DNA from: Phormidesmis sp.
GTDB taxonomy: Bacteria; Cyanobacteriota; Cyanobacteriia; Leptolyngbyales; Leptolyngbyaceae
Reading direction: 5' to 3'
Assembly: GCA_965248535.1 (NCBI GenBank)
Contig: CBDFJR010000002.1
Coordinates: 160,001 to 224,000, forward strand
DNA length: 64,000 nucleotides
Positions 1-2,431 of this stretch are shown in pieces (position 1 is the first letter of the stretch; each line of letters begins with the position of its first letter). The position numbers and the translations under genes are program-made. The notes under the pieces are model-generated. The model saw only the letters and a program-made list of their open reading frames with translations, did not search any database and was not told where the DNA came from.

Positions 1-466
1 TAGTTGCGTTGATGGCATCTTTGCAGTACTTCTGCTTGACTTCATCTAAGTTTCCACCATTTATAAATACTGGATACCAAGTACTGTTGGAATCTGTAGA
101 CTTATCCCCACAAGAGTCTTGGGGAAACTGAGGTTCACTGAGTTGAGAGTCATTACTCTGTTCAGGCTTTCTATTGATCGGGCTTTGGGTAGGTAACGCA
201 ATAGCTGACGATTCCTCAGATTTCGGACTGAAAGTCCCAACTACTTTAATTCCAACCTCCCTAGCTCCATAAAGAAAGAGAAAAAGAGGTATTAATGCAA
301 AAGCAACCTTTCCCCAGTGTCCGTTTCGAGAATTATTGTAGATGTACTGAATATAGTCTCGTCCGACTTGAATTAAATCTCTACCAGCTTGACCTATTTG
401 TCCTGAATTTTCAGCGTTGTTAAGCTCGATATCCTGATCTACATCATGAGGCTTTTTCTGGCTCAT
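1..466 (-). CDS. Integron cassette gene, 3' end beyond window start: N-terminal SGQIGQAGRDL motif, one TM helix, Cys-containing extracytoplasmic domain
   Basis: Manual translation from ATG at 466 is open to position 1: MSQKKPHDVDQDIELNNAENSGQIGQAGRDLIQVGRDYIQ...KVAFALIPLFLFLYG...FPQDSCGDK...WYPVFINGGNLDEVKQKYCKDA. Absent from the ORF track because its stop lies outside the window. Confidence 0.8.
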   Translation of the reverse strand, partial: MSQKKPHDVDQDIELNNAENSGQIGQAGRDLIQVGRDYIQYIYNNSRNGHWGKVAFALIPLFLFLYGAREVGIKVVGTFSPKSEESSAIALPTQSPINRKPEQSNDSQLSEPQFPQDSCGDKSTDSNSTWYPVFINGGNLDEVKQKYCKDAINAT

Positions 467-489
467 AATTTTGCTCTATGGTTGATGAA

Positions 490-909
490 TCAAAGTCCAA
501 AGAAACTTTTTGCCACACCGAACCAAGGTAGAAGACCTTCAATAATTGGCTTTACCTTTCCAAATAAGCCTTGACCCGCACTAACTGTCTCATCTGCATT
601 CTTCAAAACTTCAGTAGCCCTCTGCAAGCTAGTTGCTGCAAAATTCTTTTGAGGCTCTTTACTTTCTGCTTCTTCTTTCGCTGTCTCGATATGCCGAATT
701 GCTTTGCTTTTCTCTGAATCGGACAAGTTTGAACTCCAAATTAATTCCTCAATTTGTGCCAAACCTGCCACTACGTCGGTAGGAGTCAATATTCCCTCAG
801 TTTTGATCTGGTTCTGGGTCAAATCTCGTCCTGCTTGACCGATTTGTCCTGATACTTGACTACCGCTAATGGAGATGGATTGAGACTGGTAGGGCTTTTC
901 TCCTGACAT
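490..909 (-). CDS. Integron cassette gene, 139 aa: N-terminal SGQIGQAGRDL motif plus helical domain with amphipathic C-terminus
   Basis: ORF with AAGGAG RBS just upstream; lies downstream of attC in cassette orientation. Confidence 0.85.
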   Translation of the reverse strand: MSGEKPYQSQSISISGSQVSGQIGQAGRDLTQNQIKTEGILTPTDVVAGLAQIEELIWSSNLSDSEKSKAIRHIETAKEEAESKEPQKNFAATSLQRATEVLKNADETVSAGQGLFGKVKPIIEGLLPWFGVAKSFFGL

Positions 910-977
910 AGAACTCCTTATTTTACAACCGAGTAATATGGTCTGCTTCAGTATGCGTAACTTACTTCAGCTCTGAC

Positions 978-995
978 AGTACCCTTGAGGGTACT
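978..995. promoter_or_regulatory. Palindrome with perfect 8-bp arms (AGTACCCT-TG-AGGGTACT) in the 5' region of cassette 2; possible operator
   Basis: Seen directly; function inferred only from position about 70 bp upstream of the 909 start codon. Confidence 0.35.
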
Positions 996-1067
996 TTTCT
1001 CTGAAATAACTTGACTCTGGACAACAACAGATAACCTTCCAATTGCGTCCTTACCAAGAACTAAGCG

Positions 1068-1181
1068 GCATAACGATTGAGTTGAACCGCACCAAATCAA
1101 TCAAGCAACACCAACTTTAGTTGGTAGTGCGGTTAACCTTACGACTATTTGTAGCGTGTCGGTTCCAACGAAATGTTCTAC
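1068..1181 (-). mobile_element. attC: attC site (114 bp)
   Basis: Minus strand: R'' GTAGAAC, 5-nt spacer, 8-bp L'' GTTGGAAC, CGACAC...GTGCG, 7-bp L' GTTCAAC, 6-nt spacer, R' GTTATGC. Two extrahelical bases lie in the L'' arm as in canonical attC. Confidence 0.85.
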
Positions 1182-1239
1182 GGAACTGGGTGGATGTAGT
1201 GTTCCCAATGGGTAACATTTATATCCAGTTCTCGTGGAA
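1074..1239 (-). mobile_element. First integron cassette, 166 bp, no convincing gene
   Basis: Bounded by attI crossover G|TTCCAC (1240/1239) and attC R' G|TTATGC (1074/1073). The cassette start GTTCCACG matches the complement of R'' (GTTCTACG) at 7/8. Confidence 0.7.
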
Positions 1240-1260
1240 CTATTATGTGGACTGAAAGTT
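1234..1260 (-). mobile_element. attI: Putative attI core site
   Basis: Minus strand CAGTCCACATAATAG|TTCCAC, upstream of and divergent from intI; GTT triplet consistent with the cassette R'' complement. Confidence 0.6.
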
Positions 1261-1431
1261 TCTGCCTAAGATCCCAATTTTAACGACTTAGCCTGAGTCT
1301 TTCCGCCCAAGTCCGAATCAAGCGACTTAGCCCGATATGATTTCCGCATAGTACCCCTCGACAGGGATCTTGGGCGGAAATCTTCAGTATTTCTTCCAAG
1401 AGAGAACCTGTTACCGTCCGCCTAAGATCCC
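1259..1431. repeat. Dispersed TTTCYGCCYAAGATCCC motif: direct copies near 1259, 1300, 1341 (degenerate) and 1416; inverted copy at 1364-1380
   Basis: Seen directly between attI and the intI start. Confidence 0.7.
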
Positions 1432-1465
1432 GAATGACAGAATTACAGCCTTGGAACTCGCCGGG

Positions 1466-2431
1466 ATGGAACCACGACCCAGAAAGCTGCTCGAACAAGT
1501 CTCTGACCTGTTGCGAGTGAAGCACTATTCATACCGCACCGAGCAGACCTACGTTCAATGGATTCGGCGCTACATCCTGTTTCACAACAAGACCCATCCC
1601 AAAGACATGGGAAGTCCAGAGATTGAAGCCTTTCTAACGCATCTTGCAGTGCAAGAACAAGTGGCGGCATCGACGCAAAACCAAGCCCTCAGCGCCATTT
1701 TGTTCCTCTACCGCGAGGTGCTACGGCAAGAACTAGATGCTTCGATCGATGCTGTTCGAGCCAAGCAACCCCGCTATTTGCCCACGGTCTTGACAAAAGA
1801 TGAAGTCAGAGCCGTCATTGGCAACCTCAGTAGGGTGTATCAACTCGTCGTGCAGGTTCTTTATGGCAGCGGGGTGCGGTTAAACGAAGGATTGAACATC
1901 CGGGTCAAAGACCTCGATTTTGCTCAACAGCAAATCATCGTTCGCACGCCAAAAGGGGTTGAGAGTCGAGTCACGATGCTGCCCACCAGTCTAAACGAAC
2001 CGCTACATGAGCATCTGCAACGGGTACGCCGATTGCACCAGCAAGATTTAGCCCAAGGCTATGGAGCCGTGCATCTGCCGTATGCACTGGCTCGAAAGTA
2101 TCCGAATGCGGAGCGATCGTGGGTATGGCAGTTTGTGTTTCCGTCAGACCGTCGCTGTCGTGACCCTAGAACGGAGCAAATCAATCGCTTTCATCTGCAT
2201 GAAAGCGGAGTGCAGAAAGCCTTGAAGCAAGCCGTGTTTTCCGCAAGGATTCAAAAGCGAGTCGGCTGTCATACCTTTCGCCATAGCTTTGCGACGCATC
2301 TGCTGGAAGCAGGCTATGACATTCGGACGGTTCAAGAACTGCTGGGGCACAAAGATGTGAAAACGACGATGATTTATACTCACGTTCTCAATCGAGGTGG
2401 AAAAGGCGTGCGAAGTCCGCTTGATCCATAG
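1466..2431 (+). CDS. intI: Integron integrase (tyrosine recombinase)
   Basis: Catalytic motifs YGSGVR, HTFRH and GH...TMIYTH, plus the IntI-specific insertion [28 protein letters not shown]. Likely start ATG 1466 ([12 protein letters not shown]). Confidence 0.95.

Follow-up and report, generated by a model that had tools for sequence, protein, structure and literature searches.

Signalling by amyloid or prion-like motifs in bacteria is known from pairs of adjacent genes that have a short sequence motif in common. As described by Dyrka et al. (2020, 10.1101/2020.01.06.895854), these bacterial amyloid signalling (BASS) motifs are ~25 residues long (range, 20 to 40 amino acids [aa]), rich in Q, N, G, V and I and poor in K, P and L, and occur both at the C-terminal end of Bell-domain effectors and at the N-terminal end of the NOD-like receptors (NLRs) encoded next to them; BASS1 forms amyloid fibrils and prions. 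In the systems covered by that account, the receptor is always an NLR, the effector is always of the Bell type, and the motif sits at the effector C-terminus. Integron cassettes with phage defence functions, on the other side, are known from mobile integrons (10.1101/2024.07.02.601719). Here, we describe a pair of genes, A and B, at the left end of a stretch of 64,000 nucleotides (nt) from the cyanobacterium Phormidesmis sp. (the window; G000:C2:160001-224000, in a genome of 5.03 Mb). The pair shares a BASS1-like motif, lacks an NLR and travels as one integron cassette. Negative coordinates denote positions to the left of the window. The features of the pair are as follows.

490-909, minus strand: gene A, 139 aa (open reading frame [ORF] listing), the proposed effector.
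466 to window -667 (G000:C2:159333), minus strand: gene B, 377 aa, whose first 155 aa are encoded by window positions 1-466; the proposed envelope sensor.
805..885, minus strand: motif region of A, QSISISGSQVSGQIGQAGRDLTQNQ, residues 9-35, with the identical 11-mer at nt 820-852.
374..406, minus strand: SGQIGQAGRDL at residues 21-31 of B; another xGRDxIQ unit, IQVGRDYIQ, comes next.
499..783, minus strand: predicted helical module of A (AlphaFold2 [AF2]), comprising residues 43-137, with the conserved LLPWFGVAKSFFGL helix as its last element.
257..307, minus strand: transmembrane segment of B, VAFALIPLFLFLYGA, with the hydrophobic core at residues 54-70 (AF2 helix 51-79; conserved in the family).

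Genes A and B have the same orientation and are separated by 23 nt (467-489). Both proteins begin with MSxxKP, and both contain the peptide SGQIGQAGRDL, at residues 20-30 of A (nt 820-852) and at residues 21-31 of B (nt 374-406). The 33 nt that encode this 11-mer differ at five positions between the two genes; all five differences are synonymous and none is non-synonymous. Outside the shared motif, A and B could not be aligned. An earlier note on this DNA, made from its letters alone, had pointed to exactly these traits: adjacent co-oriented genes with a common start and an identical peptide, silent differences only, and otherwise unrelated proteins. The ORF translations, the nucleotide comparison and the failed alignment confirm it on every count. 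The pattern of substitutions indicates that the shared motif is under purifying selection, and the five synonymous differences rule out a recent gene conversion as the source of the identity. Furthermore, the match is not due to chance, because the strict pattern G[QN][IVL]G[QN].G[RK]D is found in the whole genome in the ORFs of A and B only, because the looser pattern [AG]GRD[LIVMFY] is rare (seven matches when 5836 ORFs of at least 100 aa were searched over their first 200 residues, five of them outside A and B and in unrelated contexts), and because a profile of the A family detects the N-terminus of B (E = 4.3e-4 per genome).

The composition of the motif is that of the BASS motifs. In the motif region of 83 A-family members, Q, N, G, V and I make up 55.5% of the residues, compared to 25.9% in the helical part, and K, P and L make up 5.8%, compared to 26.2%. 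The closest likeness is to the BASS set C01 (210 sequences; supplement 1 of PMC8086366), which we take as BASS1 since its labels reach s210 and Table 1 gives 210 sequences for BASS1. The core of C01 is [VI][YF]QAGRD[QLM]x[IV], QAGRDL is present in it, and a few of its members have an AGRD-xxx-xGRD doublet with the spacing found in QAGRDLIQVGRDY of B. Judged by eye on the core, the A/B motif looks like a cyanobacterial variant of BASS1, and the resemblance to bacterial amyloid motifs suspected in the earlier note thus holds at the QAGRD core.

To follow the pairing through the family, 47 loci were gathered from reference genomes, metagenomes and sampled genomes, of which 40 are non-redundant and have an A module. 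In 24 of the 40, a co-oriented ORF with a matching motif (local score of at least 45, a value reached by 0 of 200 shuffles) lies directly downstream of A; one locus is borderline (L002, score 40), A is cut in two, three have no downstream ORF in the available sequence, and ten gave no match. A homologue of B directly follows a homologue of A in four further contigs (L001, L011, L012 and L013), seven A/B match pairs share the same longest-contig value, and one pair has adjacent NCBI locus tags. The homologues thus co-occur and keep the motif, as anticipated. Moreover, the motifs of the two genes co-vary. In a set of 32 pairs, from which neither two near-duplicate loci nor six pairs with an unusable or non-matching motif had been removed, the mean motif score of cognate partners was 58.0, compared to 34.5 +/- 2.9 for permuted partners, and 0 of 10000 permutations reached the observed value. 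The cognate partner ranks first within its motif class in 8 of the 32 pairs and between second and sixth in most others; the pairing signal is largely a match of motif classes, and relatedness of loci inflates tests of this kind. The classes QIGQAGRD, VQIGGIAGxD, VQQxQAGxD, QxGQSxxGxV and VQGDNNRAVQGDNN are each mirrored in the partner.

The partners themselves are diverse. According to Pfam, they comprise NACHT NTPases (L002, L004, L006, L024, L025, L028 and L045), CHASE2 membrane sensors (L020 and L022), FGE-sulfatase proteins (L031, L034 and L041) and iSTAND proteins (L033 and L043). Locus L006 encodes a TIR-motif-module protein followed by a REC-NACHT protein, with the matching motif between REC and NACHT (SQLGQAGRD versus GQLGQAGRD), and in L007 and L009 a CHAT or caspase domain precedes the A module in the same protein. 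A is the constant component and the partner is the variable sensor, and we therefore call A the downstream element. The suggestion that the pair works free of an NLR stands for this genome, in which the motif is confined to A and B and therefore no NLR is involved. It does not extend to the family as a whole, in which A-type proteins also pair with NACHT (NLR-like) proteins. An NLR-free arrangement of A exists with the CHASE2, FGE-sulfatase and iSTAND partners as well; neither this nor the large size of the A family had been recognised in the earlier note.

Two further observations were made on the motifs of the relatives. In L024/L045 (G044:C98), two NACHT ORFs with the motif lie behind a homologue of A. 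The motif occurs twice in the first of them (298 aa), EGQIGQAGRDVNQ ... SQIGQSGRDLHQ; such pseudo-repeats have been reported for BASS1 and HET-s effectors, and here the pseudo-repeat is on the receptor side. A class of motifs with a repeat of eight residues (VQGDNNRA VQGDNNQA VLGDGNQ) is present in L031, L034, L041, L033, L043 and L047 and is common to A-module proteins, several of them long fusions, and to FGE-sulfatase/iSTAND partners; the partners in L041 and L043 have a sub-threshold match to the beta-roll family PF21300 at the motif (E, 3e-5 to 8e-5).

For protein A, neither Pfam nor NCBIfam gave a family match, and a Pfam scan of all 83 A-family members returned scattered weak matches only. 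Its 25 close homologues have ~140 aa, are cyanobacterial in every case with a named source, and keep three parts: an N-terminal QSISISGSQVSGQIGQAGRDLxQxQ, a helical middle and a C-terminal LLPWFGVAKSFFGL; the conserved motif region of the family comprises ~27 aa, and A itself ends in ...GLFGKVKPIIEGLLPWFGVAKSFFGL. AF2, based on an alignment of 83 sequences, gave a mean predicted local distance difference test score (pLDDT) of 75.4, with values below 50 at residues 1-19, 21-23 and 25-38, block means (10 residues) of 77-94 over residues 41-139, and helices at residues 43-58, 64-82, 88-108, 115-130 and 134-137. In this model, the Q/N/G-rich motif of A is disordered and the part after it is a helical bundle, predicted with confidence, whose last helix is hydrophobic, in line with the earlier description of A as a small helical protein. 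The polarity is the reverse of what is described for BASS effectors: there, the motif follows a Bell domain at the C-terminus, whereas the motif of A is N-terminal, or internal and ahead of the module in fusions, and the hydrophobic helix of the bundle is C-terminal and not N-terminal. A Foldseek search with A against the PDB found no match at E <= 1e-3, and a wide VIA-align search gave generic four-helix bundles at best (Z, 11.5), below the level that is meaningful for helical proteins. Two leads on the identity of A were dropped: DUF4404 (0.90) and TCAD2 (0.89), proposed by the ESM Atlas, were not confirmed by Pfam, and ElaB/YqjD/DUF883 (PF05957), the JGI name of one homologue, did not match A at E <= 1 and was hit weakly by 2 of the 83 members (best E, 0.044).

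The family is large and patchily distributed. A profile search of 1.84 billion proteins detected 368 representative clusters at E <= 1e-3, 249 of them at <= 1e-10, and 18 of the 401 genomes sampled from the phylum encode the family. The module is C-terminal in 150 of the 150 A-family members listed. Among these, 45 are longer than 200 aa and were scanned for domains ahead of the module: CHAT was found in 10, pentapeptide repeats in nine, TIR in four, and DUF4062, AbiTii, Roc-COR, Helicase_C, PMT and a weak transglutaminase-like domain in one each; 16 had no family assigned.

Protein B has a different build. AF2 (an alignment of only 16 sequences; mean pLDDT, 75.0) predicts disorder at residues 1-26, a helix at 26-47, the transmembrane helix at 51-79 and then a disordered linker, a Cys-containing beta-alpha-beta-beta-alpha-beta domain at ~130-185, a coiled coil at 217-301 formed by a helix of 85 residues with AARQRAAQEEA-type repeats (pLDDT 98), and a beta domain at 304-363. 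The middle domain (~130-185) we take, from its topology, to be SPOR-like. By fold, the beta domain comes closest to bacterial SH3 domains from cell-wall enzymes (E, 0.03-0.05; probability near 1), and one B homologue (P0039) carries PF08239. The 20 homologues of B have four conserved cysteines beyond the transmembrane helix, and B is without a signal peptide; because of these two traits, a topology with the N-terminus inside and the C-terminus outside is suggested. This predicted layout agrees with the continuation into a transmembrane helix and an extracytoplasmic, Cys-containing part that the earlier note gave for one of the two proteins. A search with residues 1-52 of B returned B-family members only (nine candidates).

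These data are best accommodated, with a probability of roughly 0.55, by a model in which B acts as a sensor in the envelope and switches on A, a membrane-directed effector, by means of a BASS1-like templating motif; together they would serve as a module of defence or cell death. B would be a bitopic protein of the inner membrane, with ~50 residues including the motif in the cytoplasm and with the Cys-containing domain, the 85-residue coiled coil and the SH3b-like domain facing the periplasm and cell wall. A would be a soluble helical bundle that buries its conserved hydrophobic C-terminal helix, with a disordered copy of the motif ahead of the bundle. A disturbance of the envelope, felt by the periplasmic domains of B, may cause B to cluster or rearrange; the cytoplasmic motifs of B could then adopt a beta-rich, BASS1-like fold and template the identical motif of A. 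Conversion of its N-terminus would free the hydrophobic helix of A, which would act on the membrane and lead to growth arrest or death of the infected or damaged cell. The polarity of A in this scheme would be inverted compared to HeLo and Bell effectors. In this sequence of events we infer the amyloid templating, the direction from sensor to effector, the action at the membrane and the role in defence. As far as analysis of this kind can go, the interpretation put forward in the earlier note is supported.

Several points weigh against this model, in which amyloid formation by the A/B motif is a prediction from sequence. Strict identity between A and B spans 11 residues only, compared to 20 to 40 in BASS motifs, with weak similarity on the flanks; the motifs of other A-B pairs are alike and not identical; and exact GQAGRD has no occurrence in the BASS sets searched. 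Ten of the 40 A loci are without a matched downstream partner. B has no NTPase that could drive its oligomerisation (Pfam and NCBIfam scans found no NTPase domain), in its AF2 model the last part of the motif lies within a helical stretch (residues 26-47) that runs on into the transmembrane helix, and four B homologues (P0033, P0034, P0038 and P0039) start with MSQxGxAGRDL and thus do not have the first half of the motif. The fold searches with A revealed no specific likeness to HeLo or MLKL-type domains, and the position of the A module behind enzymatic domains would also suit a membrane anchor or adaptor instead of an executioner. No significant promoter was found upstream of A, with promoter and terminator counts not above those of shuffled sequences.

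The most serious competitor is a homotypic adaptor that is not amyloid: the motifs would form a short beta-strand or zipper and hold A and B in a stable or regulated hetero-oligomer, with A as the constant subunit or membrane adaptor of many sensors, following the logic of the effector-associated domains (EADs) in cyanobacterial conflict systems. The pairing and co-variation show a specific relation of motif to motif and not its physical form, and the helix that AF2 places in part of the motif region of B would agree with an adaptor, as would A modules that follow TIR, CHAT and pentapeptide domains in the manner of an adaptor or anchor. EAD adaptor pairs that are encoded by adjacent genes and are mutually closest have been described (PMC7159879). 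However, the EADs as presented there are folded helical domains and not low-complexity stretches of 20 to 30 residues, whereas the A/B motif is short, disordered and Q/N/G-rich and has the QAGRD core of the fibril-forming BASS1; moreover, one partner (L024) has the motif doubled, as reported for effectors of the HET-s type and BASS1. On balance, we consider the adaptor rather unlikely.

It is improbable that the motif is instead a recognition site for a third factor, such as a degron, a targeting signal or a site at which an orthocaspase or CHAT-type protease cuts (e.g., behind the Arg in GRD), by which A and B would be co-processed or co-located. CHAT or caspase domains do precede the A module in 10 of the 45 longer members and in L007 and L009, and in the fusions the motif lies between the enzymatic domain and the module, where a release site would be expected. 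However, the A+B cassette encodes no protease, and the motif classes are diverse, some of them without Arg, and yet co-vary pair by pair, at odds with what a single factor predicts; the N-termini of NACHT proteins are, in addition, the classical place of signalling motifs in the published systems.

The earlier note had read the pair as a two-gene integron cassette, and the closing attC that it proposed to look for to the left of the window is indeed there. The features on which this rests are the following.

1463..2431, plus strand: integron integrase gene intI (TIGR02249, 468 bits versus a cut-off of 265; Pfam Phage_integrase and SAM_4).
1262..1440, no strand assigned: attI-like region with repeated GGGATCTT(A/G)GGC boxes (inverted and direct repeats I1, I4 and I7).
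1068..1262, minus strand: first cassette, a non-coding repeat of ~195 nt with a hairpin at 1080-1139 (repeat copies).
1068..1074, minus strand: cassette boundary, the R'-type core site GTTATGC, with the start of the A+B cassette between G and TTATGC (window 1074; homology break with L011).
910..1067, minus strand: cassette leader upstream of A, with the palindrome AGTACCCTTGAGGGTACT (978-995); conserved in L011 except for a 53-nt insertion.
Window -672..-757: closing attC, 86 nt, directly after the stop of B; GCATAAC (R''-like)...GTTAGGC (R'), fold of -15.8 kcal/mol.

The sites were assigned by core boxes, imperfect palindrome, fold and comparison of copies. The closing attC was missed by a strict regular expression and fold filter on L010 and was found with a relaxed filter (6 of 7 core bases complementary); six further copies of it in the genome have conserved ends and variable centres. 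No attC lies between A and B, since the gap of 23 nt is too short. On contig L011, in which A is 94% identical, GTTATGC marks the exact point (window 1074, L011 124) from which the sequence is homologous to the window, the DNA upstream of it being unrelated; a separate attC of L011 (1884-1970), which differs in its inner sequence, lies 8 nt past the stop of B. Because of the homology break at the core site, the closing attC and the recurrence in the L011 array, A and B form a single cassette of ~1.83 kb that is present in two arrays, next to a true intI.

The ~195-nt element in the first position has a 97% copy (C2:1132747-1132944) beside a second intI-like gene, at the same distance, an 89% copy (C5:797582-797830), and many copies in relatives, often at contig ends; it looks like a small and very mobile cassette. 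The homology of two relatives to the intI side ends at ~window 1238. Reading the hairpin 1080-1139 as an attC in plus orientation was rejected, as its core boxes fit the minus orientation only, as the end of the ~195-nt first cassette. The second intI-like gene (identical at 68% of nt) belongs to another integron of this genome, at G000:C2:1131611-1137000, which also has the ~195-nt element and two attC-like copies (~1135060-1135133 and 1136864-1136942), and intI-like DNA was matched in 82 of 90 genomes of the order searched. A search of Rfam with positions 880-1480 gave no match; the palindrome AGTACCCTTGAGGGTACT, which is kept in L011, may serve as an operator or else terminate antisense transcription.

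Further to the left, two more modules adjoin the pair.

Window -823..-2435 (L010 9565-11177): third cassette, PsyrT/PsyrA-like, closed by an attC ending at -3219.
Window -3444..-5758 (G000:C2:154243-156556; L010 6242-8556), minus strand: a classical-looking Bell-like + NACHT pair, ~3 kb beyond A+B.

The third cassette encodes a PRTase/ComF-like protein (PADLOC PsyrT, 1.3e-16) and a DprA/SLOG-like protein (PADLOC PsyrA, 5.5e-53; ShosA, 2.4e-35), and the further attC follows these two genes; by these matches it is probably a two-gene defence or toxin-antitoxin module of the PsyrTA/Shosta kind. In the pair beyond it, the Bell-like protein (125 aa) begins with MDPISLILAALVAGAA and ends with ...VQISGGTVQGLTQQNTGTITQNFS; in keeping with the published description of Bell domains, its N-terminal helix is hydrophobic and its second residue is D. 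The NACHT protein (639 aa; PF05729) begins with MTADNFVNISGGNVQGFIQENHGAVTQYF and has a C-terminal part with several transmembrane segments. The motif of this pair resembles sequences of the BASS set C02, and no attC was found after the pair. The NACHT partners of A in L002, L004 and L006 share a QKVGGGYIFxHR...EHF tail with this neighbouring NACHT protein. For A itself, PADLOC reported a match to PDC-M14B (E = 3.1e-9, restricted to profile positions 151-262 of 267), and A of L004 matched the same profile with E = 4.2e-10. Because of the PsyrTA-like cassette, the Bell-like + NACHT pair, the PDC-M14B match and the fusions to TIR, CHAT, pentapeptide, AbiTii and Roc-COR domains, the context of A+B is defence-like.

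Least probable of all is a housekeeping pair of the envelope or cell wall, a TolA/SPOR-like tether with a small partner, no part in signalling or death and a motif left over from a partial duplication: the coiled coil of B has a weak TolA-like match (E=0.0041, below the cut-off) and its SH3b-like domain is of a type found in cell-wall enzymes, but the mobile cassette with the adjoining PsyrTA-like cassette, the five synonymous and zero non-synonymous changes, which argue against a relic, the A-family partners, mainly NACHT, CHASE2 and FGE-sulfatase proteins of conflict systems, and the patchy distribution (18/401 genomes) all speak against it.

If the templating model is true, the principle of amyloid signalling is more general than the described systems imply: a tag of ~25 residues could let any sensor capable of clustering, even one that crosses the membrane once and faces the wall, set off an executioner in the cytoplasm. 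The network of cell death and immunity in cyanobacteria would then include a large unnamed effector family (the 368 representative clusters), and sensor-effector modules of the A/B kind would move as integron cassettes. Tentatively, and with somewhat less than an even chance, we go one step further: the A family would be an undescribed effector family with a BASS1-like motif before the executioner module, coupled to NACHT NLRs and also directly to NTPase-free sensors (here a membrane protein of the peptidoglycan-binding type, elsewhere CHASE2 or FGE-sulfatase proteins), and the pair in the window would be the first NLR-independent bacterial amyloid signalling device, which passes a signal from the periplasm to the cytoplasm by templating alone and is carried on a mobile integron cassette. 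With its small size (139 + 377 aa), clear limits and self-contained build, A+B is a convenient system in which to ask whether NTPase-driven oligomerisation can be replaced by templating alone.

How does the pair compare with known systems? Of the phage-defence integron cassettes, as far as they are described in the source cited above, it shares the attC boundaries, the true intI and the place beside a defence-type (PsyrTA-like) cassette; it differs in being a two-gene cassette of ~1.83 kb, with a putative role in defence, in a chromosomal integron of a cyanobacterium. The PADLOC candidate PDC-M14B is matched by A and its homologues in the C-terminal part (~150-265 of 267) of PDLC04449; the match is to this C-terminal module only, and B and the other partners are without a PDC-M14 match. 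PDC-M14B is a candidate without a description, and our literature search found no paper that mentions it.

The EAD effector/NTPase pairs from conflict systems of multicellular bacteria (Kaur et al., 2020, PMC7159879) follow the same plan, in that neighbouring genes carry homotypic adaptors through which variable sensors are linked to effectors, and they use the same vocabulary of domains (TIR, CHAT/caspase, FGE-sulfatase, iSTAND and pentapeptide). In the account given there, the EAD is a folded helical domain, whereas A and B rely on a disordered motif of ~25 residues. The A module is not named in that account; EACC1 is another component, mainly actinobacterial and with a central transmembrane helix. 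The fungal HET-s/NWD2 system with its HRAM motif and the RHIM proteins have the logic of the model proposed here, a receptor motif that templates the same motif on a helical, membrane-targeting executioner, and the pseudo-repeats of the motif recur in one relative (L024). Their motifs, as published, have no sequence relation to that of A and B, B is not an NLR, and A/B has been characterised at the level of sequence.

The closest relatives are the BASS1-10 pairs. Adjacent collinear genes with tiny gaps, a short Q/N/G-rich motif, the QAGRD core (BASS1), NACHT partners (in the relatives of A), filamentous cyanobacterial hosts and a small helical effector with a hydrophobic terminal helix are common to both. 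In contrast to the pairs described there, the A module is not a recognised Bell domain and is set apart by its AF2 layout, with the motif N-terminal and the hydrophobic helix C-terminal (inverted polarity), and the receptor in the window spans the membrane and has no NTPase. B is thus not an NLR-type NB-ARC/NACHT receptor with an N-terminal motif; such receptors are found among the partners in the relatives. We found no account in the literature of an N-terminal effector motif, of the A module or of NTPase-free receptors, while Table S2 of the bioRxiv version of the BASS work could list some of the motifs on the NACHT side. In sum, four traits are new relative to BASS-type signalling: the effector family, the inverted placement of the motif, the NTPase-free sensors and the carriage on an integron cassette.

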